In this document: in pieces, positions 26,699 to 42,378 of the stretch
Layout of the letters: each line of letters begins with the position of its first letter
Numbering within the stretch: position 1 is the first letter of the stretch
Notes under the pieces: model-generated
Seen by the model: the letters and a program-made list of their open reading frames with translations, nothing else
Databases searched by the model: none
Told to the model about the DNA's origin: nothing
Made by a program: the position numbers and the translations under genes
Origin: an uncultured Planctomycetales bacterium
GTDB taxonomy: Bacteria > Omnitrophota > Gorgyraeia > Gygaellales > Profunditerraquicolaceae
Length of the DNA: 59,229 nucleotides
Assembly: GCA_964488935.1 (NCBI GenBank)
Contig: CAZAVF010000002.1
Location: 1-59,229, forward strand
Direction of reading: 5' to 3'

Positions 26699-27876
26699 AA
26701 GGTAATTGCGTAAAAGAATTCAAACGGGATCTCGCTTATCATTTCTCCGAGGAACTGAACCATCCTTTCTCCAGGCCGAAATGGGTCTATATAAGTTTAA
26801 GCCATAAATGCACATATTCCTGTAAAATGTGCGGAGTGGTGAATATTCTTAAGGGGTACGAACTGCCCGGGGAGACGGTTATGCGGGCGCTTGACGAGAT
26901 AGCGTCCTGGGAATGGGGCAGCACGGTCGTCCTGACCGGCGGCGAGCCGTTCCTGCGCCGGGACATCTTTGATATCATCAACCGCGCCGTTTCGGCCGGG
27001 GTGCACACGGAGGCGGTTTCCAACGGCTCCCTTATAGACGAAAATATGGCTGGGCGCATCGTCTCCAGCGGTTTAAAGAACATAGCGGTCTCGCTGGACG
27101 GGGCGCTTCCCGGGACACACGATTATTTCCGCGGCAAAGGCGCTTTCGATTCCGCTTTGCGCGCGGTAAGGAACCTGGCCGCGGCAAAAAAGAAGCTGGG
27201 ACGCGGTCCGCAGATATCTGTCTGGAGCACGATCATGAAAGAGAATATCCCGGAGTTGTCCCGCATGCCGGCCCTGGCCGTTTCCGCCGGGGCGGAATGT
27301 TTCGTAATGCATCCGGTGATCGTTGCGCAGGACGATATGCAGAACACTTCCGGCAGCGCGCCGTTCTGGCCGGGAGAAAAGGAGATAGATATCCTGCGCG
27401 GACAGATAAGGGCGCTCGCCGCTCCTGAAGGCGGCTGCGGGATCACGGCCTTCCTGCACGACCCCTTTCTCTGGACGGAATATTTCTCCGGGCGGTTGAC
27501 CAGACGGCATTGGAAGTGTAATCCTTTCGTTTTCATCAATATCGGTCCGGACGGGGAGATCAGGAGCTGCGGGGAGTCTTTCGGCAATATAAAGGATGCC
27601 GGTATAACGGCCGCGCTTTTCACCAGGGAGGCGTCGGCGGCCCGGGAAAAGATGAAACAATGCCGCAAACCCTGCCTGCAGACGTGCTGGGCACATCCCG
27701 ACGCCGACACCATCTCCGGGCTTACGGCAAAAATGATCGGGGCCTCCCGTAACGTCCCCGGGCGCGCGGCATTGCTGCGCGAGTGCCTCGCGGAATTAAA
27801 AGAATACAAAAATATCCTGAAGGAAGCGTCCGCAGCCCGCAAAGGCCGCGCAAAAGGAGAAAAATGTTCAAACTGA
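26689..27876 (+). CDS. Radical SAM protein with SPASM/twitch-like C-terminal Cys motif (paralog 3)
   Basis: LSHKCTYSCKMCG, LTGGEPFLRRDI, C-terminal WKCNP...IRSCG...CRKPCLQTC. Confidence 0.85.
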   Translation: MQIEGNCVKEFKRDLAYHFSEELNHPFSRPKWVYISLSHKCTYSCKMCGVVNILKGYELPGETVMRALDEIASWEWGSTVVLTGGEPFLRRDIFDIINRAVSAGVHTEAVSNGSLIDENMAGRIVSSGLKNIAVSLDGALPGTHDYFRGKGAFDSALRAVRNLAAAKKKLGRGPQISVWSTIMKENIPELSRMPALAVSAGAECFVMHPVIVAQDDMQNTSGSAPFWPGEKEIDILRGQIRALAAPEGGCGITAFLHDPFLWTEYFSGRLTRRHWKCNPFVFINIGPDGEIRSCGESFGNIKDAGITAALFTREASAAREKMKQCRKPCLQTCWAHPDADTISGLTAKMIGASRNVPGRAALLRECLAELKEYKNILKEASAARKGRAKGEKCSN

Positions 27877-29048: not shown

Positions 29049-30319
29049 TGAAGATATCCTGTTACGTCCCGCTGTATAATAACGCGGACACGATAGCTTA
29101 TTGTCTGGATTCTCTGCTGCGGCAGTCTTTGGCGCCGGAAGAGATACTGGTCGTGGACGACGCTTCTTCCGACCGAAGTCCGCAGATCGCGGCGCGGTAC
29201 CCGGTGAAATTGATCAGGCATCCCAGGAATCTGGGGCTGGCCGCGGCCAGGAACACCGCTCTTAATAACGCCGGCGGGGAATTCATCGCTTCCATAGACG
29301 CCGACTGCACGGCAGATCCCGGATGGCTTCATATCCTCTCCGGAGCCCTGGCATCTTCGCCGCGCGCGGCCGGGGCCGGCGGCAGGGTCATGGAGACGCA
29401 GGCTTCTTCGGTCTTCGATATGTGGAGGGCGGCGCATATGCGCCAGCTCTGGCAGGAAAGCGAGACCAACCCGCCGTTCCTTTTCGGGGCCAACACTATT
29501 TTCCGCTCCGGCAGCCTGCGGATGGTCGGCATGTACGACGAGGCCCTCGGGAACAACGCCGAGGATGTTGATATCTGCGGCAGGCTGAAATCCGCCGGTA
29601 ACGACCTGATATATTGTCATAACGCCGTCGTGTATCATCAAAAGAAAGACAGCCTGAAGTCGCTGTTTAACAGCCACTGGAACTGGCACAGGTTGTATTA
29701 TGAGAAAACAGGGTGGTTCCGCGGCGATCTCGGCGCCAAGATCAGGGAGAATATCGGGGCCGCCAACCATTATCTTGAGGAGGATCTGTCCGCCGGCCGG
29801 CATCAGTTGTTGTACCTGGATTTCCTGCTCGGGCTGTTTTATTCTTTTAAGGACCTCCTTTATATAAAGGGCAGCTATGTTATCCCTTCCCCCGCGGTCT
29901 TATGGGCTGCGTTGACCGACCTGAGATTGAGCGAAGCGTTTTCCCGGGGAAACAACCGGGTGTTCCGTTTCGACAGAGGGGAGACCGGCTACGCCGCCGA
30001 CTTCCTGTCCGCGGCCCTGTCCATCGGAGGAACGATCAAGCGAAAGTTCCCGAACGACGATTTCCTGACGCGCATATACGCCGACCTGCAGGAAGCCGTC
30101 TATGGTATAGAGGACAGGCAGTTGGCGAGAGCGATAGAGGCGTGCTCATGCGTTGACTGGGACTGGTTGCCCGACGGTAATTACCCCCTCTCGGGGGAGC
30201 AGCTGCTCCCTGTCTTAAAGGAGGAGTTATCTTCCTGGCTGGACATGGTCGTCACCAAGTCCGGGGAGACCCCGACTTTGATAGAACTGGCTTCAAGAGA
30301 ACAGGCGTCCAGACATTGA
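29048..30319 (+). CDS. GT2 glycosyltransferase with about 170-aa C-terminal extension
   Basis: ISCYVPLYNNADTIAYCLDSLLRQSLAPEEILVVDDASSDRS plus a DxD-like IDAD. TAATG stop/start overlap with the upstream gene. Confidence 0.85.
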   Translation: MKISCYVPLYNNADTIAYCLDSLLRQSLAPEEILVVDDASSDRSPQIAARYPVKLIRHPRNLGLAAARNTALNNAGGEFIASIDADCTADPGWLHILSGALASSPRAAGAGGRVMETQASSVFDMWRAAHMRQLWQESETNPPFLFGANTIFRSGSLRMVGMYDEALGNNAEDVDICGRLKSAGNDLIYCHNAVVYHQKKDSLKSLFNSHWNWHRLYYEKTGWFRGDLGAKIRENIGAANHYLEEDLSAGRHQLLYLDFLLGLFYSFKDLLYIKGSYVIPSPAVLWAALTDLRLSEAFSRGNNRVFRFDRGETGYAADFLSAALSIGGTIKRKFPNDDFLTRIYADLQEAVYGIEDRQLARAIEACSCVDWDWLPDGNYPLSGEQLLPVLKEELSSWLDMVVTKSGETPTLIELASREQASRH

Positions 30320-30459
30320 ATCAATCTCCTCGCCTATATATCGTATTCAGGCGGGAGGGATTGTCCGCGTCCTTAAGGGCGCTGTTTTAGCGCCGCCCGA
30401 GTATAAATACCGCCGCCCGCAGCGCGGCCTTAGATCTTACCGCATGGAAAGGAGACAAT

Positions 30460-31212
30460 ATGTCGCGTAAAAAAACACCGGTCGCAAGGGTTTTGATGTT
30501 CTTTTCCTGGTCCGTCCCGTTGATCACGGCCGCCGCCGCCGCATCGGGAGTATTCCTGCAGGGCGGCCCGTTGTTCGTATCGGGAATATTCTTGCTGGTG
30601 ACGGCAAGCTTGATCCTTTCTGCCCTTCTGCGCATGTGCGCGAATCTTACGCAGATGATCTTCGAGATACAGAATACCATGCAGTATGCTTATAAGGAGC
30701 ATTCGGAGATGTTCTCTTCGCTCGCGGCGAACGTGCAGAGTATGCGCAGGGAGGACATCCCGGCCATAATAAGGGAGATGAACGCGCGGCTGCTTGCCGG
30801 GAATTCCGAGGCGGCTGAGGGGGTCTCGGACATGACCAGACTTCTTTCCCGGATAGCGGAAGGGCTCGACGCCCTGCCCGGCAAGGTGGGGCCGCTCCAC
30901 GAAGAAGATATGCTTATGATCATGAGAGAGCTGAACGCAAGGATGCTCTCCGGCAATGTGGAAGTTGTAGAGGGGATTAACGCTCTGTCCGCGCAGAATG
31001 AGAAAGTGCTGAATGAGTCTGCCGCGCGCCTGGAAGCCCTGCATGCCGAGCTGCAGAGGATCGGTAAGGATGAACATAAGGAGGAACTGCGTTCCTGCCT
31101 GGAAGACCTGCGGGAGATCAAAAGCAACTGCGCGCAGGTGTCCTGCGATACCAGGGACATCTCCTCTTTCTTCAGCCTGATGGAAAAACACCTGAACATT
31201 AAAAAGACATGA
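30460..31212 (+). CDS. Hypothetical membrane protein (2 TM) with coiled-coil cytoplasmic region containing an internal duplication
   Basis: GGAAAGGAGA RBS upstream. Two hydrophobic helices at aa 11-60. The repeat REDIPAIIREMNARLLAGNSEAAEGV pairs with EEDMLMIMRELNARMLSGNVEVVEGI. No family recognised. Confidence 0.6.
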   Translation: MSRKKTPVARVLMFFSWSVPLITAAAAASGVFLQGGPLFVSGIFLLVTASLILSALLRMCANLTQMIFEIQNTMQYAYKEHSEMFSSLAANVQSMRREDIPAIIREMNARLLAGNSEAAEGVSDMTRLLSRIAEGLDALPGKVGPLHEEDMLMIMRELNARMLSGNVEVVEGINALSAQNEKVLNESAARLEALHAELQRIGKDEHKEELRSCLEDLREIKSNCAQVSCDTRDISSFFSLMEKHLNIKKT

Positions 31213-32567
31213 TGCGGGTGGCTTTGGTCAATCTTCCCTGGAGCAGCGAAGGAAGGCTGGGCGTAAGGGCCGGATCCCGCTGGCCTTTTACCAGCGAACC
31301 CGTTCCCGGCGGCCGGCTGCTTTATCTGCCGTTCCCTTTTTTCCTGGCTTACGCGGCGGCGCTGTTGAAAAAGAACGGTTTCCCGGTGACGCTTGCGGAT
31401 TGTATCGCTTCCGGGGAGGGATACGCCGAGTTGTGCGGCAGGCTGTCCGCCGCACAGCCGCAGCTGCTGGCCGCGGAGATATCCGCCCCATCCCTTTCCT
31501 GCGATCTGAAGATGCTGAAAGATCTGCGGGAGGCTTTCCCCGCGATGAAGATCGCCGTTTGCGGGGCCCACGCCACGGCGAGATACGCGGAACTGCTCGA
31601 GAACGGCCCGTTCATAGATTTTGTCCTGCGCGGGGAATACGAACCTGTCCTGCTCGATCTTTCCAGGGCGCTGGATTCCGGCCGCGGGCCGGACGGTATA
31701 CTGGGACTCGTCTGCCGCGGTCCCGGGGGGGAGATCAGGGCGAACGGTGCCCGCCGCATTCAGGATCTCGACAACCTGCCCTGGCCGGAACGCGGTGACC
31801 TGCCGCTGTTGAATTACAACGACGGGTTCTGCGGGCTGCCTTCCCCCAACGTCCAGATGCTTTCCAGCCGCGGTTGTCCGCTGGGATGCTCGTTCTGCCT
31901 CTGGCCGCAGACCGTATATTCCGGGGGGGAATACCGCTGCAGGTCGGTTGTCGATGTAGCCGATGAGTTTGAATCCCTCGCCGCAAAAAAGGTGTTCAGA
32001 GCCGTTTATTTCGACGACGATACATTCAACCTGCGCAGGGAGCGCGTTTTGTCCCTCTGCGCCGAAATAAAGAGAAGAAAATTGAACGTGCCGTGGGCGG
32101 CCATGGCGCGGGCGGACCTGATGGACGAAGAATTGCTCTCCGTCATGGCGGATGCCGGGGCGTACGCGGTGAAATACGGTATAGAATCGGCAGATCCCCG
32201 CGTGAACGAGCTGTGCGGCAAACGCGCGGACCTCCGGCGTTCCCTGGAGATGATACGTTCCACCCGCAGGCACGGGATAAAAGTCCATCTCGCTTTTTGC
32301 GTCGGCCTGCCAGGGGAAGATAAGGGCACCCTGGCCAAGAACACGGAGTTTGTCGGCATGGCCTCCCCCGATTCCCTGCAGGTCTCTTTCGCCGTACCTT
32401 TCCCGGGCACGGCGTATTACGACCTCGTTTTAAAAGAGGGGCTGCTTGCGTCCGGCAACCTGGATGATTATGACGGCAGCCGCATGTGCGTGGTGAAGAA
32501 CCCGGGGCTTTCCCCGTCGGATATGGAAAAGGCGAGAGATGCTCTCTATAGTTGTTGCCGTTTATAA
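31209..32567 (+). CDS. B12-binding-domain radical SAM protein (class B rSAM), second copy
   Basis: N-terminus MRVALVNLPW...; rSAM motif SSRGCPLGCSFCLWP. ATGA overlap with the upstream gene. Confidence 0.85.
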   Translation: MMRVALVNLPWSSEGRLGVRAGSRWPFTSEPVPGGRLLYLPFPFFLAYAAALLKKNGFPVTLADCIASGEGYAELCGRLSAAQPQLLAAEISAPSLSCDLKMLKDLREAFPAMKIAVCGAHATARYAELLENGPFIDFVLRGEYEPVLLDLSRALDSGRGPDGILGLVCRGPGGEIRANGARRIQDLDNLPWPERGDLPLLNYNDGFCGLPSPNVQMLSSRGCPLGCSFCLWPQTVYSGGEYRCRSVVDVADEFESLAAKKVFRAVYFDDDTFNLRRERVLSLCAEIKRRKLNVPWAAMARADLMDEELLSVMADAGAYAVKYGIESADPRVNELCGKRADLRRSLEMIRSTRRHGIKVHLAFCVGLPGEDKGTLAKNTEFVGMASPDSLQVSFAVPFPGTAYYDLVLKEGLLASGNLDDYDGSRMCVVKNPGLSPSDMEKARDALYSCCRL

Positions 32568-33411
32568 CGGTTCTTCCGTGATCGAAAGATGTCTGGAGTC
32601 CCTGCTTTCCCAGGAGTGCCTGGAGGCCCCGGAGATCATAGTGGTGGACAATGGCTCTTCCGACGGCACCGCCGGCATCGTCCGGGAACGGTTCCCCTCG
32701 GTGACCCTGCTGGAGAACGGGAAAAATCTCGGCGCGGCGGCGGCGAGGAACCTCGGCATATCGGCGTCCCGGGGGGAGTGGGTCTTTACTTTCGACTGCG
32801 ATACGGTGGCCGGCAAAGGTTTCCTCTCGGCGGTCGAGTTCCTGACCGGAGCGGAAGAGGGGTCTATGGTAGGGATAATCCAGCCTCTGATATTAGGCTC
32901 CGGGGGCGGAAAGGTATTCTCCCGCGGGATAAGTCTGGATTTCTTCTGGCGTTTCAGCGATATAGACAGGGACGAATCCTGCCGGAAGAGCGAGCGCAAC
33001 CCGGAACGCATAGACGCCGCCTGTTCGGCGTGCGCCGGTTACCGCAGGCGCATGCTGGAAGAGATAAAAGACGGCCACGGGTATTTCGACGAAAGATTCT
33101 TTTTCATGGTGGAGGACGTCGACCTCGGGATGAGGGCCGGTATGGCCGGATGGAAGACCGCGTTCTGCCCGGGCGCGACGGCTTATCATTACGGCAACTC
33201 TTCCGGATTTTCCCGCAGGGAAAGACAGTATCTTTGCTGGAGGAACAGGAAGTTTATGCTGAAGAAGATGAAAAAAACGCCGCTGCGCGCCTGCGCCGCC
33301 CGCTTGTGCTACGATCTGCCGAAAGACACCGTTCTGTTCTTTCGCAACTTTCATGTGAGACGCGCCGTGCTCCGCGGCAGATATGACAATCCCCGGACGT
33401 CTGCCGTTTGA
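32539..33411 (+). CDS. GT2 glycosyltransferase
   Basis: LSIVVAVYNGSSVIERCLESLLSQ....IIVVDNGSSDGT, and a DxD-like FDCD. Confidence 0.85.
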   Translation: MLSIVVAVYNGSSVIERCLESLLSQECLEAPEIIVVDNGSSDGTAGIVRERFPSVTLLENGKNLGAAAARNLGISASRGEWVFTFDCDTVAGKGFLSAVEFLTGAEEGSMVGIIQPLILGSGGGKVFSRGISLDFFWRFSDIDRDESCRKSERNPERIDAACSACAGYRRRMLEEIKDGHGYFDERFFFMVEDVDLGMRAGMAGWKTAFCPGATAYHYGNSSGFSRRERQYLCWRNRKFMLKKMKKTPLRACAARLCYDLPKDTVLFFRNFHVRRAVLRGRYDNPRTSAV

Positions 33412-33500
33412 GGATTCCCTTGTTCCCTCCGGAGGGGTAAGCGGTCTTGGCGCGGGGATGCGCCGGGTTTTTCCCGGCCGCGGCCGGACTATGTCACTTA

Positions 33501-33509
33501 TGGTATAAT
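33501..33509 (+). promoter_or_regulatory. Extended -10 promoter element (TGGTATAAT) in the 377-bp gap upstream of the GT2/RiPP-like cassette
   Basis: TGgTATAAT at 33501-33509. The same extended -10 wording recurs upstream of other operon starts in this window (45216, 58615, 1828). Confidence 0.45.
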
Positions 33510-33788
33510 TGTGTTATACTGAAAACCGGGGCATCCCGGGGGCTGCCAGGGGGGCCGGGTTCTATACCTGCGCGGCCGGGAGACCGCGTCATCTCCGGCC
33601 CTTATGGGATCCGGCCGTTTCTTCGGGGATTACGAAGGACGGCGCATTGTTCCTTTCCGGAATAACCGCGGGCGCCTGTGCCGGACAGCTTGAGAGGCCC
33701 GCTGCTGAAGTCCGTCCAAGGATCAGTCAGCGGCGCGCCGAATTGATCGCGCGAAAGATCCCTTTCACGCGCCGCAGAAAGGTTTTTT

Positions 33789-34502
33789 ATGCCGGGGCTG
33801 GAGATCATAGTTCCCGTACATAACGAAGAAGAGACGATCGCGGAAACCCTGTCGAGATTAAGAAAAGAGGTCAGGTACAGTAACCGCGTGACCATAGTGG
33901 ATGATCATTGCGACGACGGCTCCCTGGAGCGGCTGAAGGGGCCGGATGCGGCAGGCGATAATACAGAACTGGTCAGCAATGAGAACCGCAGGGGATTCGC
34001 GAATGCCCTGAGAAGGGGTATAAAGAATGTCCGCGGATCGGAGGACGCGGTGGTCTTCGTGATGGCGGACGGGTGCGATGATCCGGCCGACATAAACAGG
34101 ATGTTCGAATTAGTGAAGAACGGTTACGACGTCGTTTGCGCCTCGCGTTTCCTGCCCGGCGGTAAAAGAGAGGGCGGCGACCCGGTGAAAAGCCTGTTCT
34201 CTTACTTCGGGAACAGGATATTGACCGTCTTGTTGCCGGGCAGGTTCACCGACTGGACGAATTCTTTCAAGATATACAGAAAAAGGGTCATTGACGAAAT
34301 AAGCCCGTTGAGCAGCGGTTTTGAGATTTCCCTGGAACTGGCGGTGAAGGCATCGGAAGGCGCTTATTCGATCAAGGAAGTTCCCACGGTATGGAGGGAG
34401 CGGGACAAGGGCGTCTCCAAATTCGGCTTTAAGGACGTCCGCGGATATTTAAGGTGGGTCATGTTTGCGCTGGCCTTTAGAATCGGGTTGAGAAAAACGT
34501 GA
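33789..34502 (+). CDS. GT2 glycosyltransferase, polyprenol-phosphate sugar synthase (DPM1/ArnC)-like
   Basis: LEIIVPVHNEEETIAETL.....VTIVDDHCDDGS, ...VFVMADGCDDP, CASRF. Size 237 aa. Confidence 0.8.
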   Translation: MPGLEIIVPVHNEEETIAETLSRLRKEVRYSNRVTIVDDHCDDGSLERLKGPDAAGDNTELVSNENRRGFANALRRGIKNVRGSEDAVVFVMADGCDDPADINRMFELVKNGYDVVCASRFLPGGKREGGDPVKSLFSYFGNRILTVLLPGRFTDWTNSFKIYRKRVIDEISPLSSGFEISLELAVKASEGAYSIKEVPTVWRERDKGVSKFGFKDVRGYLRWVMFALAFRIGLRKT

Positions 34503-34515
34503 GGTTCACGCCGTT

Positions 34516-35562
34516 ATGGAAGAGATGAAACTGGTAAGTTTTTACGTGACCCAGAAATGCGGCCTGTCGTGCTCGCATTGTTTCGGTCTGGGCCGTGACC
34601 TTTTCCCGGATGAAGAGCTTTCCGGGGAGGATTTCTGCCGCGTGCTGGACGAATTATCCGATATAGACGTGATAAGGCTGCTGGGAGGAGAATGTCTGTG
34701 CGAGTGGGACAAGGTGCTTGAGATCACCCGGCACGCTTCGCGTCTGGGGAAGAGAACGGTGATCCTGACCAATACAGAGCTGCTGAACGGGGAACGGGTG
34801 CGGCTGCTTAAAGAGGCCGGCAATTGCATCATACAGGTCTCCTGCGAAGGCATGGGCGCGGTACAGGATTGCGTCAGGGGCGACGGGTATTTCGAGAGAG
34901 TGCTGTGGAAGATCAAGCTGATCAGAGAGCACTCCATCCGCTGCAATATGGTGGTAACTTTGACGCCTCATAACATCGGGCAGATCGCGGATATCTATGC
35001 CATGGCCGCCAATCTCGGCATAATGAAGGTCGTATTCTCGATGGTGCTTGAGGTGAACGGACGGGACGGACTGCGCCTGCCGTTCGGGCAGTTTGAGAAG
35101 GGGATGGATGATCTCGCCGGGGTCTTTAAGGATCACGGCGGCAGAAAACCGGTGCAGATAGGTTTTTCCCCCCTTCTGGTGAATTATCTTTACGCCTGCG
35201 ATAATCCCTGGCTGCGGGACAATTGCGGCAGCGAGATCCGGGAGGCGGCCCATAGGCTGAGAAAATGCGTCCATCAGGGGAAGTTCTGTTTGTTCCCCAA
35301 CGGGGACGTTTATCCCTGCCCGTTCCTCCCTTATCTGAAAAACCCGCCGCCTCCGGCCGGTAATATTAAGAAGCAGCCGGTAACGTTGATCCGCCGGAGC
35401 ATAAAAGAGATGTTCGGCAGGATCAATGTGAAGGATCAGGAGTGCAACAATTGTAATTTATTCATGGACTGCGGCGGGGGGTGCCGCGCCAGGGCTTACA
35501 GGGATACCGGCAGCCTGGATGGGGTAGACGGGGGATGTCCGGTAAGGTCAGCAGGGGTGTAA
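34516..35562 (+). CDS. Radical SAM/SPASM-domain peptide-maturase-like protein
   Basis: FYVTQKCGLSCSHCFG (CxxxCxxC). C-terminal SPASM-type cluster CVHQGKFCLFPNGDVYPCPF...CNNCNLFMDCGGGCRARAY. Confidence 0.85.
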   Translation: MEEMKLVSFYVTQKCGLSCSHCFGLGRDLFPDEELSGEDFCRVLDELSDIDVIRLLGGECLCEWDKVLEITRHASRLGKRTVILTNTELLNGERVRLLKEAGNCIIQVSCEGMGAVQDCVRGDGYFERVLWKIKLIREHSIRCNMVVTLTPHNIGQIADIYAMAANLGIMKVVFSMVLEVNGRDGLRLPFGQFEKGMDDLAGVFKDHGGRKPVQIGFSPLLVNYLYACDNPWLRDNCGSEIREAAHRLRKCVHQGKFCLFPNGDVYPCPFLPYLKNPPPPAGNIKKQPVTLIRRSIKEMFGRINVKDQECNNCNLFMDCGGGCRARAYRDTGSLDGVDGGCPVRSAGV

Positions 35563-35589
35563 TAATTAGAGAAGAGAAAGGGGTATTCC

Positions 35590-35751
35590 ATGCATATGCA
35601 GCGTAAATGGCGGGATAAAGAGGCGGGAGGGGAACCCGCCGCCGGGAAAATGAAATACGTCAAGCCGGCGATGGAAAAGGTGGTCATCCCCAGACCGGAA
35701 GAAAAAGATTTCCATGCCGGGTGCACATGCTGCACCTGCGGCTGCAGTTGA
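35590..35751 (+). CDS. Unannotated small ORF: candidate RiPP precursor peptide with Cys/Thr-rich C-terminus (53 aa; possible alternative 33-aa form from the ATG at 35650)
   Basis: Hand translation: MHMQRKWRDKEAGGEPAAGKMKYVKPAMEKVVIPRPEEKDFHAGCTCCTCGCS*. AAAGGGG RBS about 7 nt upstream of 35590. It fills a 204-bp gap in an otherwise tightly packed cassette. It is below the 60-aa cutoff of the ORF track. Confidence 0.6.
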   Translation: MHMQRKWRDKEAGGEPAAGKMKYVKPAMEKVVIPRPEEKDFHAGCTCCTCGCS

Positions 35752-35766
35752 GCATTCAGCGGTAAG

Positions 35767-36759
35767 ATGCGAAGCGGACCGTTTTCGGGGGGGGAGATGG
35801 AGAAATCCGGCGCCGGGGAAAGAGCCGACTTCAGGATATTCCTGGGAATAGAGAAAGGCAACGGTTTCCTGCAGAAGATAGTCTCACATCTGGAGATATT
35901 CGAATGCCGGCAGGCTTCTTCCAGGGAGGAGGCGGATATTGTGCTGGAATTCAGCGATATCTCCTGCCTGGAAGAAAAAACATGCCGTCTCCCGGAAATG
36001 GACGGTAATATATCTATCTGGGGCCCCTGGCATTACAAGTATCCGGACAACAGCAAGATCGTCGCGAGCTGGGGATTAAAGAACCCTTCCCGGGCGGTGA
36101 TCGATATAGATAGAAGAAGCATACGGTTCTTTATTTCCCCGTATCACTGGGACAAGCCGGATCTGGTACCCATAAGGTTCATCAAAGGGGCGATATACCT
36201 GCTTTTATTGTACAGCGACGTTTATTCTTTCCACAGTTCATGCCTGGCCGACGACCGCGACAACGCCTATATGTTCATAGCCCCTTCCGGGCAGGGGAAA
36301 AGCACGGTGTTGAGGAATCTCCTTAAAGAAGGTTTCCGGTGGATCGCCGACGACCAGGTTTTCCTGAAGGCCGCCGGAAGCAGGATATGGGCCTTCTCCA
36401 TATTCAACCAGGTCGGGCGGAATAACGATATAAACCTGGTCAGGGAATTAGGCAGGGCAAATTGCGTGAGTTCAGGGGCTTTTCTGAAATCGGTGGTCGT
36501 GCTTTCCGTGGCGCCCGGGGAAAGGACCGTCATATCTTCCCTGTCCGGTGATGAGGTGCAGGATATCTTCCGGCGTTCCCGCAAGTTCTTTAACTCTACA
36601 TACCTGGAATCGGATCACGATTATCTCAAGGAGCTGTATGAACGGTGGAGCGGGGCGCTGAGGCGGTCCTGCGCGTTCTTCAGAATGGAGTGCGGAGAGG
36701 ACGTCAAGGACGATCCGGCGCTCCTGCATGAAATACTGTCAAACGCCGCCGTATTGTAA
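35767..36759 (+). CDS. HPr-kinase-C-terminal-domain-like P-loop protein (HprK-related kinase / ScmC-like)
   Basis: The P-loop in context, YMFIAPSGQGKSTVLRNLLKEGFRWIADDQVFL, resembles the HprK/P C-terminal kinase domain (G-x-S-G-x-G-K-S...aDD). The start is uncertain (35767 or 35797). Confidence 0.6.
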   Translation: MRSGPFSGGEMEKSGAGERADFRIFLGIEKGNGFLQKIVSHLEIFECRQASSREEADIVLEFSDISCLEEKTCRLPEMDGNISIWGPWHYKYPDNSKIVASWGLKNPSRAVIDIDRRSIRFFISPYHWDKPDLVPIRFIKGAIYLLLLYSDVYSFHSSCLADDRDNAYMFIAPSGQGKSTVLRNLLKEGFRWIADDQVFLKAAGSRIWAFSIFNQVGRNNDINLVRELGRANCVSSGAFLKSVVVLSVAPGERTVISSLSGDEVQDIFRRSRKFFNSTYLESDHDYLKELYERWSGALRRSCAFFRMECGEDVKDDPALLHEILSNAAVL

Positions 36760-36770
36760 GGGAGGACTAT

Positions 36771-37043
36771 ATGGAAAAAGAAGTTTACGGGATAGACAAG
36801 GAAAGGGTAGCCTGGAGGGACATCGAAGGGGAGATAACGATACTAGACAAAAAGGCCGGGGAATTCTTTCATTTGAACGCCGCGGCCTGCAGGATATGGC
36901 ATTTGATCCAGGACGGAGCTTCGGTAGATGAGATTATTTCCGATCTCGGGGGACATTTTGACGCCGGAGAAGAAACGCTGCGCGGGGACATAACCGCTTT
37001 TGTGGGCGAACTTTCCGGGAAAGGGTTCATTAAACGGCAATGA
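36771..37043 (+). CDS. PqqD-family peptide chaperone (RiPP recognition element)
   Basis: 90 aa. VAWRDIEGEITILDKKAGEFFHLNAAACRIWHLIQDGASVDEIISDL...DITAFVGELSGKGFI is the textbook PqqD pattern. Confidence 0.85.
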   Translation: MEKEVYGIDKERVAWRDIEGEITILDKKAGEFFHLNAAACRIWHLIQDGASVDEIISDLGGHFDAGEETLRGDITAFVGELSGKGFIKRQ

Positions 37044-38116
37044 GCGTCGACAGCGGCATAGTCCTGAATAAAGGGATATCCCTGCAGTGGCACATCACTG
37101 AGCGCTGCAACTGGGACTGCCGGCACTGCTACCGCGGCGATATAGCCTCGGAACTGCCGCTCGAGAAACTCTACGCCGTTTTTCTGCAGTTCATCCAGTT
37201 CCTCGATATTTTCGGGATCCCGCGCAGCATGGCCAGATTGAACCTCGTCGGAGGAGAGATATTCATGCGGGAGGACTTCCTCGATTTCCTGGACAGGATA
37301 AGCCCGTATAACGACAGGTACCGTCTTAAGATCCTGACCAACGGCTCTTTGCTGAATAAGGAGGTGGTGGCGAGGATAAAGGCGGCCGGCGTTCACACAC
37401 TTCAATTGAGCGTGGAAGGCATAGGTGAGACGAACGATAGAATAAGGGGGCAGGGCACATTTTCCGGCGTGTTGAAAACGATCGAATTCCTGACCGCCAG
37501 CGGGATGTCGGTGGTGGTCTCCGTTACGCTGGCGAAATACAACCTGCGCGAGATACCGGAGCTCATAGATACTTTTACGGGGATGGGGGTCATGAAACTG
37601 GGTATCCGGCGGCTGGTCCCCATAGGGAATCACCGGAAGGAACTTTTCTCAGGGATGCTCAGTCCCGGGGAGCAGAGGGATTTCTATATGATGCGTTATG
37701 ACCTGGCGAAAGCGGACGCGCGCGGCAAGCAGGCGGTCTATAATCATCTTTGCTGCGAGGACGGCATTTTCTTCCAGGAGGAAGGTCCGGCCGGGGAGTA
37801 TGACAGTCCGGCGATACCCTTATGCGGGGTGCTGAGCAACCGTATCCTGACCGTCATGCCCAACGGCGATGTCCTGCCTTGCCGGAGGCTGCCGATCGTC
37901 CTGGGCAACGTGTTGGAGAGCAGTCTGGTGGACATATGGTTCAGTTCGAAGGTCCTCAACGCTCTGAAGGACCCGCGGCGCGCGGCCCCGGAATGTAAAG
38001 AGTGTAAATATTTCGATTCGTGCAGGGGAGGGGCCAGGTGCGTGAGTTACGGGTATTTCGGTAAACTGGATGCCCCCGATCCCCAGTGCTGGAGATTATT
38101 TAAACGGCTGCCTTAA
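37040..38116 (+). CDS. Radical SAM/SPASM-domain peptide-maturase-like protein (PqqE-like)
   Basis: HITERCNWDCRHCYRG. C-terminal SPASM cluster LCGVLSNRILTVMPNGDVLPCRRL...CKECKYFDSCRGGARCVSY. ATGA overlap with the PqqD gene. Confidence 0.85.
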   Translation: MSVDSGIVLNKGISLQWHITERCNWDCRHCYRGDIASELPLEKLYAVFLQFIQFLDIFGIPRSMARLNLVGGEIFMREDFLDFLDRISPYNDRYRLKILTNGSLLNKEVVARIKAAGVHTLQLSVEGIGETNDRIRGQGTFSGVLKTIEFLTASGMSVVVSVTLAKYNLREIPELIDTFTGMGVMKLGIRRLVPIGNHRKELFSGMLSPGEQRDFYMMRYDLAKADARGKQAVYNHLCCEDGIFFQEEGPAGEYDSPAIPLCGVLSNRILTVMPNGDVLPCRRLPIVLGNVLESSLVDIWFSSKVLNALKDPRRAAPECKECKYFDSCRGGARCVSYGYFGKLDAPDPQCWRLFKRLP

Positions 38117-38132
38117 GTATCAGAGGAGGATT

Positions 38133-39110
38133 ATGAGAAAGAATAGAGCGGTTTTGGCCTGCGGGATAATTCTGGCGCTGGCGGTCAACGCCCGGTACGC
38201 GTACGCGGAGACCGTCCTTCTAAAGTCGGGAAAGAAGGTAGAAGGCAAGATCGTGGAAAGGAACGAGGTCTATATAAAGGTCATGATCGGGGAAGGGATA
38301 ACCGCCCCTTATTTCCTGAGCGAGATAGCCGGGATCGACGGTGTCCCTCCCGTCTCGCGCGCGTCCGGAGAGGGGGTGGAGGAGAAAGAGGTAAAGAAAG
38401 AAGGGAAGGGCGGCCCGGAAGAATTGAACGCAGGCGAGATCGTCTCCAGGATGCTGGATGTTTACGGCGGAGCCGCAAAATGGGAACAAATAGAAGGGTG
38501 GACCTGCGTAACCAGGGTGGCGTTCCCGGGGACGGGAGAAACATGGGAAACGACAAGCTACGTCAGACTGCCGGAACAATTCCGTTTTGACCTGAAAGTG
38601 AGCGGCGGCAAAGGCGCAGGGGAATTCAGCCTGGTCTCTTATAAAGGGGCCGTGAAATATTTTTCCGGCGGAAGGCAGACGAAAGACATCCCGGAGGCAT
38701 ATAAGAGGCAGCTCTATAAGACCCTTCAAAAGGCGAGGAGGACCAGGGCCCCCGCCCAGACCCTGTATTTCTACGAGATCAGGAACCAGATGGTATTTGC
38801 CGGTAAACAGGATGTCAACGGCAGGGAATGTTATATACTGAAATATGAAGACGACGAGGGACCCAAAGGAAGGCTTTTTGTGGATGCGAAGGATTTTCGC
38901 AGTCTTAAGCTGGAATTGGACGAGGATTCCGGCAGACAGGGACAGGAGTGTTTCCTGGGGGAAAAGCTGATAGGGGACCGGGGAATAAGTTTTCCCGCTT
39001 CCAAGTCGGTATATAGCGGCAAGACGCTGGTAATGAGTTCCGAGACGGTGTCCCTGTCTTTTTCCCCTCCGGGGGAGACCTCCTTTGTGACCGGTAAAGA
39101 GAACCGATGA
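38133..39110 (+). CDS. Secreted hypothetical protein, paralog A (LolA/RseB-like fold suspected)
   Basis: GAGGAGGA RBS. Signal peptide MRKNRAVLACGIILALAVNARYAYA. Shares MLDVYGGAAKWEQIEGW...GRECYILKYED blocks with the next two genes. Confidence 0.65.
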   Translation: MRKNRAVLACGIILALAVNARYAYAETVLLKSGKKVEGKIVERNEVYIKVMIGEGITAPYFLSEIAGIDGVPPVSRASGEGVEEKEVKKEGKGGPEELNAGEIVSRMLDVYGGAAKWEQIEGWTCVTRVAFPGTGETWETTSYVRLPEQFRFDLKVSGGKGAGEFSLVSYKGAVKYFSGGRQTKDIPEAYKRQLYKTLQKARRTRAPAQTLYFYEIRNQMVFAGKQDVNGRECYILKYEDDEGPKGRLFVDAKDFRSLKLELDEDSGRQGQECFLGEKLIGDRGISFPASKSVYSGKTLVMSSETVSLSFSPPGETSFVTGKENR

Positions 39111-39919
39111 TCAGGAGCACCCAGGTTCTTTTCTCTTTAGTTCTTTCTGCCGGATTGACGCTTAACGTGTTCTCTTTCTGCCGGGCCGGCGACGTCCGGG
39201 CGGGACATGCCGTAAAAAGAGGGAACGGCGCCTCCGGGAAGACGTCCCCGGATGTCCCGGAGATTATTGCGAGAATGATGAACGCCTATGGCGGCGTAGA
39301 GCAGTGGCGGAACATAAACGGCTGGAGCATATTTTATACCGGGCTGTATAACTGCAAGCGGCCTTATGATCTCAGGATCTATGCTTCCCTGCCGGATAAA
39401 TTCAGGCTGGATTTCAAGTACACGGAAGGGAAACCGGACCTGTTCCAGATATTTTGTTCCGGAGACCGGGTGGAATATCTTAAGAACGGCGTCCGACTGG
39501 GGGACGCGGGGGAAAGCGCGGAACTGCAGGATATGGAACACATCCTTGCGGCGGCGAGAAGGCGGCAGGCCCCCGGGAGCCCGGTGGATTTCTACGACGA
39601 CCGCGGGCAGTATTATTTCGCCGGGGAAAGGACGCTCGGGGGCAGGAAGCATTACGTCCTGGAGAAAAAGGAACCGGTGCAGCGCGAAAAAAGAAGGGTC
39701 TTTGTCGACGAAGAGACATTTTTCGTGACCAAACGGGAGTTCGACAAAATAAGAGGCAAGTTCGTGGAGCTGTATATAAAAGGGGAACCTTTCAGGATCG
39801 GCGGGCTCGTTTATCCTTCGCAGCGCTGGGCTTACCATGACGGCAGGCTCGTCGACAAGCTGAAGGTGACTTTTTTATCCCTGGACTCTCCGGACGATAA
39901 AGTGTTCGACCTCCCCTGA
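39107..39919 (+). CDS. Secreted hypothetical protein, paralog B
   Basis: Signal-like N-terminus. MMNAYGGVEQWRNINGW...GRKHYVLEKKE blocks. ATGA overlap with paralog A. Confidence 0.65.
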   Translation: MIRSTQVLFSLVLSAGLTLNVFSFCRAGDVRAGHAVKRGNGASGKTSPDVPEIIARMMNAYGGVEQWRNINGWSIFYTGLYNCKRPYDLRIYASLPDKFRLDFKYTEGKPDLFQIFCSGDRVEYLKNGVRLGDAGESAELQDMEHILAAARRRQAPGSPVDFYDDRGQYYFAGERTLGGRKHYVLEKKEPVQREKRRVFVDEETFFVTKREFDKIRGKFVELYIKGEPFRIGGLVYPSQRWAYHDGRLVDKLKVTFLSLDSPDDKVFDLP

Positions 39920-39934
39920 GGCGAAGGAGGCATC

Positions 39935-40756
39935 TTGAAAAAGACACGGTTGGCGGCTGTCGTTGTTATGTTGTTCATCGCGGCTGCGGGCGCATATGTT
40001 TGTTCCCGTTCCCGCATCTCTCCCGGGCCCGCGCCGGACGCGGACGGATTGACCCCAAAGCAGATAACCGCCAGGATGATGGCGGCGGTGGGCGGAGAGG
40101 CGAATTGGCGGAAGGCGGAACGCAGCGGTTACAGTATGGCGTTCTCCATGGTGGATTACGCGGCGGGAGTGGACAGAAGGGTATGCGCCTCGATGCTGCC
40201 CGGCGGCAGGATGAGAATAGAATTCGAGACCTTCCGGGGGCCGCGGAAATTGACGCATTTGCTGCTTATCGAGACCCCGGGCAAACAGGCGGTCTTCGAG
40301 AACGGGAAACGGGTGTATCCGCCGTGGAACGGGCCGGAATATCAGTATCTACTGGAAAGCAGGCTGCAGGAAGAGCTGCCGAACCTGCCCACTTTCTTTC
40401 TCAAAATACACGAAGACGCGGATAGCGCCAGGTTAGTCGGCAAGAAGAATGTCCTCGGGAGCCCGTGCTATATCCTCTCGTGGAAGGGGCTTTTCAAGGA
40501 GAAACGCGCGGCCATCGACGCCGAGACTTTCTATCTGCGGGAAATAGAGATACTGAAACCGCACAAACGCATAGAGAAATATTATCAGAGGGACCGGAGA
40601 TTCGGCGACGTCTTCTTCCGCAGGGTCAAGGAGGTGTGGATCAACGGAAAGCCGAGGACCATATTACTGTTCTCGTATCTGTCGTTCGATCCCCCCGACG
40701 AAAGCCTGTTCCGTGCCGAAGATGACCGGCCGGAGCGCGCCGTCGGCGGCGAATAG
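39935..40756 (+). CDS. Secreted hypothetical protein, paralog C
   Basis: TTG start with GAAGGAGG RBS. Signal-like MKKTRLAAVVVMLFIAAAGAYVC. MMAAVGGEANWRKAE...GSPCYILSWKG blocks. Confidence 0.6.
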   Translation: MKKTRLAAVVVMLFIAAAGAYVCSRSRISPGPAPDADGLTPKQITARMMAAVGGEANWRKAERSGYSMAFSMVDYAAGVDRRVCASMLPGGRMRIEFETFRGPRKLTHLLLIETPGKQAVFENGKRVYPPWNGPEYQYLLESRLQEELPNLPTFFLKIHEDADSARLVGKKNVLGSPCYILSWKGLFKEKRAAIDAETFYLREIEILKPHKRIEKYYQRDRRFGDVFFRRVKEVWINGKPRTILLFSYLSFDPPDESLFRAEDDRPERAVGGE

Positions 40757-40842
40757 CGGCATCCGGCTCCTCCGCGTCATCGGCTCTGTACTTCTTAACC
40801 AGTGAAACATGTCCCCAGGTCCAACCGGAGCCCCGGAACCCG

Positions 40843-42378
40843 TCAAAACCCCCAGATTTTCCTGCCGATAGTTTTATTTATCGTCTCCCTGTCTTTTTCC
40901 TCGAATCCTTTATTGAAGAAGGACACGGCCAGATAAAGTGACACCGCGCACAAGAATGCGCCTGCCAGCGAGAACGCGTCTTTTATGAGCGGGCGCAGCA
41001 GGAATAACGGGACGGCGGACAGCAATATGTTGACGGTGAAGACGGCGAAAGACCTCCAGGGATATGCCAGGGGGATGATCCTGCCGGTGGCGGAACGGAA
41101 ATAGAGGATTATCGCGATCCCGGTGATCCCGGTGGCGAAGACCGCCCCCGGCACCCCGTAAAGCGGTATCAAGATAAGGTCCAGTGCCAGATTGAGCAGG
41201 GAGATCAGCCCGGTGATGAATATTATCCGCGTCCTTTCCAGCGTGAATAAAAGCGGTGTGTATACGAACCCGAACTGGTGCACGGCTATGAATGCCAGGG
41301 AAAGCCTGAACAGGTTGGCCGAACCGGCGTATTCCGGGTTCAGCAGGAAGAGGATTATCTTGTCCGCCAGCACCATGGCGAAGACGAACAGCGGGATCAT
41401 CAGGAAGTAAGTGATCCGGTTAAGGAACGAGAAGAGGTAGAAGAAATTACCGGTATCCTTTTCTTTCGTATAATTCCTGATGGAGACCGTTTTCAGGACG
41501 GGATGGAGCTTGTTCGCCGGTGAGAGCTGCATCAGCAGCAGGGGGATGCCGAAACAGACGGAGTATACGCCGACCTCCCGCTGTCCGAGAAAATAAGAGA
41601 TCAGGAAGATATCCAGGCCTTTTCTGCGGAAGAACTGCGTCAGTTTGTGGAAATAAAGGAACTTGGCGAAGTCGAAGAACCTTCTCAGCGGCAGCTTCAC
41701 TATATCCTCTTTCTTTACCGGCAGGAAGAAGATGTCCCTGCAGGCTTTGCCCATCAAGAGCGTGAAAAGCAGCGCCTCCGATATCAGCCAGCCCAGCAGT
41801 ATCCCGTTGATGCCGCGATGCAGCCGGAAAGCCAGGTAGAAGGAAACCAGCTTCACGAAGCTATAGGTTATGCTGCACAGGCTCCAGTAGAGGTTCTTGA
41901 AGAGGGAGACCATTGCGATGTCCCCCAGGAGATAGGATTCCGTGCTCAGCAGGGTTATGGCGGCGAGGACGGAGAACAGTTTGGCGGAATGCAGCGGGAG
42001 GTTGAAAACAGCCGCTATCTTCGTCCTGGCGAGAAATACGGCGGAGAGAACGGCCAAAAGCGAAAGCAGGCACAGCAGCATGGCGAAAGCCAGCACGCGT
42101 TTCTTCAGGTAGTTGTTCCCGGTCTCTTCGTATTCCGGAAGATATCTTTGTATTATCGAGTCGGTCCCGGCGAAGGCGACCGTCTGTATGAAGAATACTG
42201 CGGCGAGGAGGAAATTATAAAAGCCGAATTCTCCCACCGCGAGCTTCTTGAGCACGTAGATAAGGGAGAGAAAATTAAAAAGAGAGGCGGCCGCGGCGGT
42301 GAAATACTGGAAGAGAGAGGCGTGGAATCCGGCGCTCAGCAGCTTCAGCGAGAAAGAGGGACCGCCGGTCTTATCCAT
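40843..42378 (-). CDS. Polysaccharide/oligosaccharide flippase (MOP superfamily, Wzx-like)
   Basis: 511 aa, about 12-14 hydrophobic helices, with the typical basic loops of polysaccharide biosynthesis (Wzx) proteins. Confidence 0.7.
   Translation of the reverse strand: MDKTGGPSFSLKLLSAGFHASLFQYFTAAAASLFNFLSLIYVLKKLAVGEFGFYNFLLAAVFFIQTVAFAGTDSIIQRYLPEYEETGNNYLKKRVLAFAMLLCLLSLLAVLSAVFLARTKIAAVFNLPLHSAKLFSVLAAITLLSTESYLLGDIAMVSLFKNLYWSLCSITYSFVKLVSFYLAFRLHRGINGILLGWLISEALLFTLLMGKACRDIFFLPVKKEDIVKLPLRRFFDFAKFLYFHKLTQFFRRKGLDIFLISYFLGQREVGVYSVCFGIPLLLMQLSPANKLHPVLKTVSIRNYTKEKDTGNFFYLFSFLNRITYFLMIPLFVFAMVLADKIILFLLNPEYAGSANLFRLSLAFIAVHQFGFVYTPLLFTLERTRIIFITGLISLLNLALDLILIPLYGVPGAVFATGITGIAIILYFRSATGRIIPLAYPWRSFAVFTVNILLSAVPLFLLRPLIKDAFSLAGAFLCAVSLYLAVSFFNKGFEEKDRETINKTIGRKIWGF

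Follow-up and report, generated by a model that had tools for sequence, protein, structure and literature searches.

The stretch of DNA analyzed here, referred to as the window, comprises positions 1 to 59,229 of contig CAZAVF010000002.1 of an uncultured Omnitrophota bacterium (59,229 nucleotides [nt]; all coordinates are window positions, with the plus strand as read). At 34516-38116 it carries five plus-strand open reading frames (ORFs), coding for a radical S-adenosylmethionine (rSAM) enzyme with a SPASM domain, a Cys-rich peptide of 53 amino acids (aa), an HprK-like P-loop protein, a PqqD protein, and a second rSAM/SPASM enzyme. A first-pass annotation had described them as a compact cassette for peptide maturation, and the five co-directional ORFs are all present at these coordinates together with the motifs quoted for them. 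The five genes stand as a unit, but the compact extent of 3.6 kb does not, because they form the core of a conserved block of about 12 genes (ca. 33.8 to 45.1 kb) that also includes three exported paralogs, a MOP-type flippase, a PF14907 nucleotidyltransferase, a PMT_2 glycosyltransferase (GT-C fold), and a GT2 glycosyltransferase. The genes of the block, several of them for a predicted ribosomally synthesized and posttranslationally modified peptide (RiPP), are the following.

33789-34502, plus strand: GT2 glycosyltransferase, polyprenyl-phosphate-sugar-synthase-like (Pfam Glycos_transf_2, 3.5e-21)
34516-35562, plus strand: rSAM/SPASM enzyme 1 (rSAM1), 348 aa, clade-specific; CxxxCxxC at C15/C19/C22, C-terminal CNNCNLFMDCGGGC
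35590-35751, plus strand: predicted precursor peptide gene, 53 aa, MHMQRKWRDKEAGGEPAAGKMKYVKPAMEKVVIPRPEEKDFHAG-CTCCTCGCS; ends in GCTCCTCGCS
35767-36759, plus strand: HprK/ScmC-like P-loop protein, putative peptide kinase, 330 aa; APSGQGKSTV...IADDQ
36771-37043, plus strand: PqqD-family RiPP recognition element (RRE), 90 aa (Pfam PqqD, 57.2 bits, 2.1e-15)
37040-38116, plus strand: rSAM/SPASM enzyme 2 (rSAM2), 358 aa; CNWDCRHC and CKECKYFDSCRGGARC; the gene overlaps the PqqD gene
38133-39110, plus strand: exported paralog 1; ORF opens at 38070, likely start MRKNRAVLACGIILALAVNARYAYA; signal-like N-terminus
39107-39919, plus strand: exported paralog 2; signal-like N-terminus; sub-threshold LolA_like match (0.028)
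39935-40756, plus strand: exported paralog 3; signal-like N-terminus
40843-42378, minus strand: flippase or exporter of the MOP superfamily (Wzx/Polysacc_synt-like), assigned via the ortholog in contig L001
42371-43552, minus strand: PF14907 (NTP_transf_5) nucleotidyltransferase-fold enzyme, putative partner of the kinase-like protein (Pfam, 5.1e-45)
43539-45092, minus strand: PMT_2-family membrane glycosyltransferase, GT-C fold (Pfam PMT_2, 1.6e-15)

The gene order of the cassette, including the small ORF, recurs in all the related contigs whose length allows it to be seen and is therefore more than chance. In contigs L001, L002, and L003, in the L005 group, and in L012 (a Candidatus Omnitrophota metagenome-assembled genome), the order is the same as in the window, i.e., rSAM1, peptide, kinase-like protein, PqqD, rSAM2, and the three paralogs, and the flippase, the nucleotidyltransferase, and PMT_2 close the block on the other strand. 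Between rSAM1 and PMT_2, the enzymes of the window are 50 to 64% identical to those of L001 and L012, and the three paralogs are 33 to 45% identical; the flanks of the block bear no relation to each other. In L001, the block is preceded by hicAB and genes for cytochrome c biogenesis and followed by a transposase. Across the conserved block (window 33000-48000), the G+C content drops from about 0.59 to about 0.54, which, together with the hicAB and transposase flanks of the L001 block, is consistent with a horizontally mobile module. Pattern scans of genomes and of metagenomes recovered one further locus each. Judging from these sequence comparisons, the cassette is a real gene set, confined to a handful of Omnitrophota lineages. 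It had also been described as embedded in a glycan locus. Glycan-type genes do adjoin it, but the downstream ones (coding for the PF14907 enzyme, PMT_2, and the flippase) are conserved together with the cassette and are probably part of its system.

A plausible substrate gene inside the cassette had been pointed out in the first-pass annotation, and here the comparison was favorable on every count. In each of the six lineages found, the small ORF follows rSAM1 and precedes the kinase-like gene, with a length of 53 to 56 aa, and the related loci all keep it Cys-rich. Within the close clade, the N-terminal ca. 20 residues are variable with the reading frame kept open, a leader segment (KYVKPxMEKVxIPxPExKDF) is conserved, and all ten C-terminal residues are invariant. 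In the final 32 codons, the window and L001 differ by 15 synonymous and 6 nonsynonymous changes (proportions of differing synonymous and nonsynonymous sites, pS and pN, of 0.80 and 0.08), and the core codons contain synonymous changes only. A Shine-Dalgarno-like site of the AAAGGGG or AAGGAGG type is located 6 to 9 nt before the upstream ATG in six of the six lineages. Because of the synteny and the pN/pS ratio, we regard the small ORF as a genuine gene under strong purifying selection at the protein level; the same two observations rule out a spurious ORF. The peptide is not hidden, as had been claimed, since public gene callers already predict it, and its NCBI ortholog (MCK4809547.1) is a hypothetical protein. 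The locus contains what characterizes a RiPP cluster, that is, a precursor gene with leader and core conserved beside modifying enzymes.

The leader motif, K-[YF]-V-K-P-x-[MI]-E, is of the lasso-peptide type and also appears in lasso precursors of Azospirillum (WHKPAL, in a precursor ending in Ser) and Butyrivibrio (WNTPVME, in a precursor beginning MKAWNTPVMES...), both of which resemble the Y-V-K-P-A-M-E-K of the window. In the most distant lineage, L014, with a kinase-like protein 36% identical to that of the window, the peptide (MRQAKQEEKEAEIQHKQKFVKPRIEELIISPSKERRARGAWCACAGCGFGCACSAT) has kept the leader as KFVKPRIEEL and has a different core, WCACAGCGFGCACSAT, again with five Cys. A C-[GA]-C-S motif is common to the cores of the window, L014, and L016 (another Omnitrophota locus, described below), and in the window clade its Ser is C-terminal. 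None of the NCBIfam and Pfam peptide models, even at an E value of 10, matched the peptides, which rules them out as SCIFF, ACGX, or other modeled precursors. A GC-rich inverted repeat, GGCGGG-N7-CCCGCC, was flagged on the minus strand by the terminator scan at 35622-35640, in the variable N-terminal part of the precursor ORF.

Checking the four larger proteins against hidden Markov models (HMMs) gave the expected result for rSAM/SPASM, twice, and for PqqD; the HprK-like assignment was weak by HMM scan but was backed by profile comparison. The Pfam cutoffs are 29.5 bits for Radical_SAM, 21.5 for SPASM, 23.4 for PqqD, and 33.3 for Hpr_kinase_C. Both rSAM proteins, which have the CxxxCxxC motif they had been credited with, exceed the first two (Radical_SAM, 57.6 bits for rSAM1 and 71.0 for rSAM2; SPASM, 26.1 and 40.3 bits). 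rSAM1 also passes the NCBIfam SPASM domain model TIGR04085 (47.5 bits; cutoff, 27) and has C-terminal Cys at positions 251, 258, 268, 310, 313, 319, 323, and 341. It is 59 to 61% identical to its orthologs in L001 and L012 and has no close counterpart in Omnitrophota loci of the L016 type. rSAM2 is 45% identical to the lone rSAM/SPASM enzyme of L016, which adjoins a peptide of the form ...SSCGCSNCGCSACW, and is the putative maturase common to other Omnitrophota cassettes with CxC-S-type peptides. For both enzymes, the nearest solved structures by sequence are SkfB and CteB (for rSAM1, 6efn at 5.7e-14 and 5wgg at 3e-11, respectively). At 57.2 bits, the PqqD protein is well above its cutoff, and its best NCBIfam matches are PqqD chaperones of lasso peptides (NF033530, 43.6 bits with a cutoff of 70; NF033536, 35 bits). 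Both a PqqD-family element, the mark of an RRE-dependent pathway, and rSAM/SPASM maturases are present.

The P-loop protein had been likened to HprK. It misses the curated HMM cutoffs, but full-length profile homology and the residues of the kinase signature speak in favor of the assignment. Aligned with hhalign, its family profile matches an Omnitrophota protein of L016 (precomputed annotation, PF27840:ScmC) end to end, over 282 columns, with a probability of 97.2% and an E value of 3e-11. In an alignment of 12 sequences covering the diversity of the family, H156, S174, G177, K178, T180, and D195/D196 are invariant or nearly so; we take H156, the Walker-A positions, and D195-D196 to be the His, Walker-A, and Asp-Asp signature of HprK/P kinase. 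All the elements of that signature (His, Walker-A GxSGxGKS/T, and Asp-Asp about 15 residues later) are found. Because of the end-to-end alignment and these conserved residues, the protein is probably a catalytically competent P-loop enzyme of the HprK/ScmC superfamily. Its true start may be the Met at 35806, given that protein P0001 begins at the position of window Met-14. By sequence searches, the family is very rare. A word-indexed search of 5.8 billion proteins gave four clusters, at 90, 81, 62, and 60% identity, and a full HMM search of 1.84 billion representatives gave only two family-level clusters, with one new distant member (P0005, E value of 1.3e-67). The same HMM search retrieved ca. 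240 twilight matches limited to the P-loop region, which are HprK_rel_A, HprK_rel_B, or ScmC-like by NCBIfam. No meaningful match was found when the profile was compared with PDB sequences.

The nucleotidyltransferase encoded on the opposite strand has an invariant D125-x-D127. Its AlphaFold2 (AF2) model, with a predicted local distance difference test (pLDDT) score of 90.6, has MenT1, LnuA, TM1012, ANT(2'')-Ia (5cfs and 4xje), and FKRP as top Foldseek matches, and its profile gave no meaningful match among PDB sequences. In the maturation of the lasso peptide pseudomycoidin, the HprK-family enzyme PsmK adds a phosphate to the C-terminal Ser, and PsmN is needed for the addition of one or two hexoses to the phosphate; PsmN is described as an "uncharacterized nucleotidyltransferase," which requires D134 and D136 for activity and is distantly similar in structure to ANT(2'') (5cfs/4xje) (PMC6993621). 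Lasso-peptide kinases act on the C-terminal Ser (PMC8498205). With its DxD and its ANT(2'')-Ia matches, the modeled window enzyme fits the description of PsmN, a likeness of motif and fold. The conserved block has an HprK-like and a PF14907 gene in one locus, as do modules of the PsmK/PsmN type.

Homologs of the nucleotidyltransferase form at least 149 clusters; all the taxon-named ones come from Omnitrophota, and some are fused to Peptidase_S24. The surroundings of NTP_transf_5 homologs with 34 to 49% identity to the window enzyme were read in six other Omnitrophota loci, with the following gene contents near NTP_transf_5.

L016: PMT_2, a 51-aa ORF (...RYEKP...SSCGCSNCGCSACW), rSAM/SPASM, ScmC, three PqqD, and a transglutaminase-like protein
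L017: an NTP_transf_5-S24 fusion, three rSAM, ScmC, and two PqqD
L018: rSAM, PqqD, two YcaO, a 59-aa ORF, an S24-like protein, and PMT_2
L019: PMT_2, ScmC, PqqD, a 58-aa ORF (...KWIKP...), rSAM/SPASM, and an S24-like protein
P0230 locus: glycan-type genes only, without PqqD
L020: glycan-type genes only, without PqqD

NTP_transf_5 lies within 10 kb of rSAM and PqqD genes in four of the six loci and within the same distance of ScmC in three, and relatives of PMT_2 (33 to 47% identity) adjoin it in L016, L018, and L019. A tblastn search with the window nucleotidyltransferase against 72,556 plasmids retrieved 11 records, from which seven loci in six phyla were inspected. The HprK/ScmC-like family profile matched exactly one ORF in six of these seven loci, and no ORF in those Omnitrophota loci where ScmC is absent. 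Four of the plasmid loci (L022, L023, L024, and L025) have annotated lasso genes (cyclase and/or B2) as well as PqqD, and in L022 the B2 protein itself is the nucleotidyltransferase homolog. In L021 (plasmid of Bacillus sp. BS98, 617-8011), an HprK-like "hypothetical protein" and PF14907 are found with radical SAM, NUDIX hydrolase, aminotransferase, and phosphotransferase genes. This locus, without lasso genes and without annotated PqqD, is a further non-lasso context for the pair.

The cassette had been compared in the first-pass annotation with two systems, the bioinformatically named SynChlorMet (ScmC/D/E/F, TIGR04248-04251) and HPr-rel-A. The likeness is real at the level of architecture and superfamily, SynChlorMet having the same four protein types and the kinase-like protein aligning end to end with the ScmC-annotated Omnitrophota protein mentioned above. 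However, every equivalog cutoff is missed by a wide margin. On the SynChlorMet models, the two rSAM enzymes score 70.9 and 123.7 bits for ScmE (TIGR04250) and 43.8 and 64.3 bits for ScmF (TIGR04251), with cutoffs of 400, ScmD (TIGR04248) reaches 25.1 bits versus 100, and ScmC (TIGR04249; cutoff, 125) has no match at E <= 0.01. On those of HPr-rel-A, the kinase-like protein scores 21.1 bits versus 200 (TIGR04352) and PqqD 23.1 versus 35 (TIGR04353). In contrast to SynChlorMet, the window cassette has an identified conserved precursor gene and is linked to PF14907, PMT_2, and flippase genes. The name SynChlorMet occurs in none of the papers searched. Literature searches on ScmC-type cassettes, the ACGX system, HprK-related kinases and rSAM RiPPs that have one, ranthipeptides with a kinase, and RiPPs of Omnitrophota returned nothing relevant among the top results (mostly unrelated acronyms), and no described product or substrate of cassettes with rSAM/SPASM, PqqD, and HprK-like genes was found in them.

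With the lasso tailoring pair PsmK or PadeK plus PsmN (pseudomycoidin and paeninodin), the block has in common an HprK-superfamily protein, a PqqD RRE, a PF14907-type nucleotidyltransferase, and a leader motif of the form [YFW]xxPx[LM], and the precursor of the window clade ends in Ser. It differs in having neither a lasso cyclase (Asn-synthase-like) nor a B2 protease, in a Cys-rich core that would be matured by two rSAM/SPASM enzymes, and in the pairing of the nucleotidyltransferase with a GT-C transferase and a flippase. Lasso cyclase and B2 domains were not found in the genes of the conserved block, the rest of the window having been scanned only in part for Asn-synthase domains. Sactipeptide (SkfB) and ranthipeptide/SCIFF (CteB, PapB) systems share with the window the complete C-terminal Cys set and a short precursor with a C-terminal Cys-rich core. 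However, the window rSAMs are far below the cutoffs of the SkfB, SCIFF, and PapB models, the RRE is a separate PqqD protein and not an N-terminal domain, and a kinase-like enzyme and a nucleotidyltransferase are added. The ACGX model (TIGR04340; uncharacterized) is the best NCBIfam match of rSAM2, and its cores also have Cys flanked by small residues, but rSAM2 scores 155.7 bits versus a cutoff of 400 and the peptide models gave no match. The mycofactocin pathway likewise combines a short precursor with a PqqD-like RRE, with an rSAM/SPASM enzyme whose target is the C-terminus, and with glycosyltransferase genes in the locus; here the differences are the scores on MftC (76 bits for rSAM1 and 117.9 for rSAM2 versus 265), the lack of MftD and MftE, and a Cys-rich core in place of the C-terminal Val-Tyr. 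On the curated cutoffs, membership in the SCM, HPr-rel-A, ACGX, SCIFF, PapB, SkfB, mycofactocin, and PQQ families was ruled out. The cassette would be best described as that of an RRE-dependent radical-SAM RiPP, with a SynChlorMet-like architecture and a lasso-type tailoring module (RRE, kinase, and nucleotidyltransferase). Among the phosphorylated RiPPs listed in a 2025 paper, HprK-superfamily kinases are named only for lasso peptides (PMC12639078).

The reading that we favor, with moderate confidence, is a RiPP locus of about 12 genes in which a peptide is modified by the rSAM enzymes, phosphorylated, elaborated at the phosphate, and glycosylated and/or exported. The comparative sequence evidence shows the 53-aa ORF to be translated as a precursor with a leader of ca. 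43 aa and a core of ca. 10 aa, GCTCCTCGCS. Judging from what is known of the family and from the conservation of the motif, PqqD would bind the leader segment K-Y-V-K-P-A-M-E-K-V (lasso-type [YFW]-x-x-P-x-[LMI]) and present the core. The two rSAM/SPASM enzymes would modify the five cysteines, most likely by intramolecular thioether crosslinks of the sacti or ranthi type, the leading guess in view of SkfB and CteB, the closest relatives of known structure. The HprK/ScmC-like protein would phosphorylate a hydroxyl of the peptide, the best candidate being the Ser of the terminal CGCS, which is plausible by analogy with PadeK and PsmK. The PF14907 enzyme would elaborate the phosphate, likely with a hexose, as PsmN does for pseudomycoidin, the only peptide for which phosphate-then-hexose on Ser is known in vivo (PMC6993621). 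More speculatively, the co-operonic PMT_2 and MOP flippase and the GT2 could provide further glycosylation on the outer side of the membrane and/or export, and the three exported LolA-like paralogs might handle the product in the periplasm.

Several observations weigh against such a pathway. Its chemical steps (crosslink, phosphate, and sugar) are all inferred, with the product predicted from genes. The kinase-like protein reaches only 15.9 bits (E value of 0.0095) on Hpr_kinase_C, with its cutoff of 33.3, and 21.1 bits (E value of 1.4e-4) on NCBIfam HprK_rel_A, with its cutoff of 200, and its AF2 model, made from five sequences, has a pLDDT of 42.4, too poor for a fold search. The C-terminal Ser is missing from the distant relative L014 (which ends ...CSAT), the L016 peptide ends in ACW, and several plasmid lasso precursors have no terminal Ser. 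Neither a protease nor an ABC exporter dedicated to peptides is encoded in the conserved block. In two other loci (the P0230 locus and L020), NTP_transf_5 stands among glycan genes only, with neither PqqD nor ScmC, and for this reason the substrate of the nucleotidyltransferase could here be a glycan or a lipid. The activity of PsmN has never been reconstituted in vitro (PMC11912497). It should be noted as well that rSAM and glycosyltransferase genes abound in the window in general, so that some of them are more likely to be neighbors by chance.

The alternative that survives best, although we consider it rather unlikely, is that the five genes of the cassette suffice for a peptide that is crosslinked by the rSAM enzymes and possibly phosphorylated and that the nucleotidyltransferase, PMT_2, flippase, and GT2 genes represent an unrelated surface-glycan pathway that happens to adjoin it. 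The Omnitrophota homologs of NTP_transf_5 are always among glycan genes (Wzy_C, PMT_2, and GT4/GT2), two of the six loci have no PqqD or ScmC gene within 10 kb, the whole window is a large glycan and rSAM island, and the two operons are convergent and not one transcript, all of which would suit two separate pathways. But the block, including its three minus-strand genes, is intact in L001 and L012 at about 60% identity with both flanks replaced, six of the seven unrelated plasmid loci have an HprK-like gene together with PF14907, and in pseudomycoidin the kinase and the nucleotidyltransferase act on the same residue (PMC6993621). Quite improbable appears to be the possibility that the peptide serves as a sacrificial scaffold from which a small molecule or metal-binding product is made, through SbtM-like heterocycles of the thiooxazole type or through MftC-like C-terminal processing to a glycosylated cofactor or metallophore. 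What points in that direction is that the best NCBIfam match of the L016 rSAM enzyme (45% identical to rSAM2) is SbtM (157.7 bits versus a cutoff of 350; 152.3 bits on ACGX), that rSAM2 itself has 115.7 bits on SbtM besides its 117.9 on MftC, and that the upstream GT2 at 32539-33411 weakly matches MftF (66 bits versus a cutoff of 280). The core, moreover, consists of Cys flanked by small residues, and thiooxazole RiPPs bind copper (PMC12538549). Yet the SbtM, MftC, and MftF scores are all far below the cutoffs, the block has no MftD- or MftE-like oxidase or peptidase, and the nearest solved structures by sequence are thioether synthases. That the rSAM/SPASM and kinase-like enzymes act on a glycan or lipid intermediate, with the small ORF as a regulatory or incidental micro-ORF, is hardly credible: besides the GT2-rSAM/SPASM fusion at 21045-22949, the window does have two B12-rSAM genes and another five rSAM genes placed among glycosyltransferases, a setting in which rSAM enzymes of this organism may target sugars, but the gene of the PqqD RRE runs into that of rSAM2, strong purifying selection acts on the small ORF, which has an RRE-type leader motif and an invariant Cys-rich core, and ScmC-like genes elsewhere are always directly beside PqqD, rSAM, and small-ORF genes.

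The favored reading, a RiPP locus whose peptide is modified, phosphorylated, and glycosylated and/or exported, may be extended to a class of phosphoglyco-RiPPs in Omnitrophota, a proposal that is tentative and, as a whole, unlikely. The crosslinked Cys-rich peptide would be phosphorylated, the phosphate would serve as the attachment point of a glycan through PF14907, PMT_2, the flippase, and GT2, and the peptide would prime or anchor a surface or secreted glycoconjugate with the LolA-like proteins as carriers.

Among the remaining genes of the block, exported paralog 1 has a weak Lepto_7_Nterm match and orthologs in L001, L005, and L012, and its N-terminal domain is also found in a secreted protein inside the L018 cassette. 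The LolA_like match of paralog 2 covers the same profile region as those of its orthologs. The L001 ortholog of paralog 3 matches LolA_like at 1.7e-5 (25 bits versus a cutoff of 30), with a faint TP_0789-like match, and sub-threshold LolA_like matches, a tentative likeness, are found in six of nine paralog orthologs, mostly at the same profile region. A Pfam scan of the window flippase copy (40843-42378) gave no match; the L001 ortholog, 63% identical, matches Polysacc_synt and Polysacc_synt_3. The minus-strand genes overlap, by 8 nt between the flippase and the nucleotidyltransferase and by 14 nt between the latter and PMT_2. The GT2 at 33789-34502 has sub-cutoff NCBIfam matches to the dolichyl-phosphate hexose transferase, ArnC-like, and PpgS families; relatives with 39 to 40% identity are located at the opposite end of the block in L001 and L012, and GT2 accompanies the block in a variable position, at either end. 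Three candidate regulatory sites were found, all by consensus match only, the third being the best sigma-70-like match in 31 to 46.5 kb.

33446-33467: terminator-like site upstream of the GT2 gene 33789-34502
33491-33520: promoter-like site upstream of the same GT2 gene
45128-45156, minus strand: sigma-70-like promoter candidate of the PMT_2-nucleotidyltransferase-flippase operon, TTGACA-17-TAAAAT, 11 of 12 positions

As for leader removal, the S24-like and transglutaminase-like proteins of the related Omnitrophota loci have no counterpart in the window, and tblastn with a Transglut_core3 protein found nothing in it. Fusions of PF14907 to a signal-peptidase-like Peptidase_S24 are present in L017 (10001-11860) and in P0173, P0179, P0188, and P0268, and stand-alone S24-like proteins are found inside the rSAM/PqqD cassettes of L017, L018, and L019. 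These S24-like proteins and domains are candidate leader peptidases of the Omnitrophota cassettes, with none in the window. At 3903-6266, the window encodes a 787-aa protein with TPR, DUF3857, and a transglutaminase core; as it lies a long way from the cassette and is not among the genes conserved with it, this protein is an improbable candidate for the leader protease that the block lacks.

Two of the related loci have features of their own. In L019 (1-1828), a single protein of >1453 aa contains three consecutive radical SAM/SPASM modules, in a locus with ScmC, PqqD, NTP_transf_5, and two PMT_2. In L018 (3379-7686), two YcaO-TPR genes are followed by the 59-aa ORF (MKKKKWKKPKLSVL...CGSCSWQTSS), beside rSAM, PqqD, NTP_transf_5, and PMT_2, a different RiPP chemistry joined to the same nucleotidyltransferase/GT-C pair.

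Elsewhere in the window, seven radical SAM genes are interleaved with GT2 genes at 21045-32567, namely, the GT2-rSAM/SPASM fusion, B12-rSAM genes at 23008 and 31209, rSAM genes at 24381 and 26689, and rSAM/SPASM genes at 25301 and 27783. This array is outside the block conserved with L001 and L012, and no Cys-rich small ORF was found in it; it suggests radical-SAM chemistry on glycans or further unrecognized peptide substrates. The B12-rSAM at 31209-32567 was rejected as a member of the system, being only 20 to 25% identical to B12-rSAMs near NTP_transf_5 in L016 and L019 and absent from the L001 and L012 blocks. At 13157-16195, a Glycos_transf_4 of the polyprenyl-phosphate sugar-phosphate transferase type, a flavin amine oxidase, and an ABC-2 membrane protein are arranged as in L016 (18798-21230), and L020 also has the first of these two genes, which suggests a larger recurring surface-glycan island of Omnitrophota. 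The only other gene-like small Cys-rich ORF of the window (8857-9075, 72 aa) has an N-terminal CxxC...CxxC zinc ribbon, which we take to be FmdB-like, and a tail rich in Gly, Ser, and Cys; its product is probably no more than a common zinc-ribbon regulator. tRNA-Val(TAC) at 1605-1678 and tRNA-Asp(GTC) at 1858-1933 are the sole Rfam/ARAGORN matches in the window.

The gene types described here are all known, and the architecture had already been named in protein-family databases. What is new is that the precursor has been pinned down for such a cassette, by its leader motif, its invariant 10-residue core, and the C-[GA]-C-S motif, which makes it directly testable by co-expression. The pair of HprK-like kinase and PF14907 enzyme is known experimentally only from lasso peptides, and the present data suggest a portable tailoring module, used by radical-SAM RiPPs outside the lasso class as well and, in Omnitrophota, connected to membrane glycosylation machinery. 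Few RiPPs are phosphorylated (PMC12639078), and for phospho-glycosylation a single case is known. The class of phosphoglyco-RiPPs, if true, would give ScmC-type cassettes their first substrate and function. The cassette offers a clean and testable way into an uncharacterized cassette type and into what may be a phosphoglyco-peptide chemistry, and it adds to the scant knowledge of the biosynthetic capacity of Omnitrophota, an uncultured phylum.

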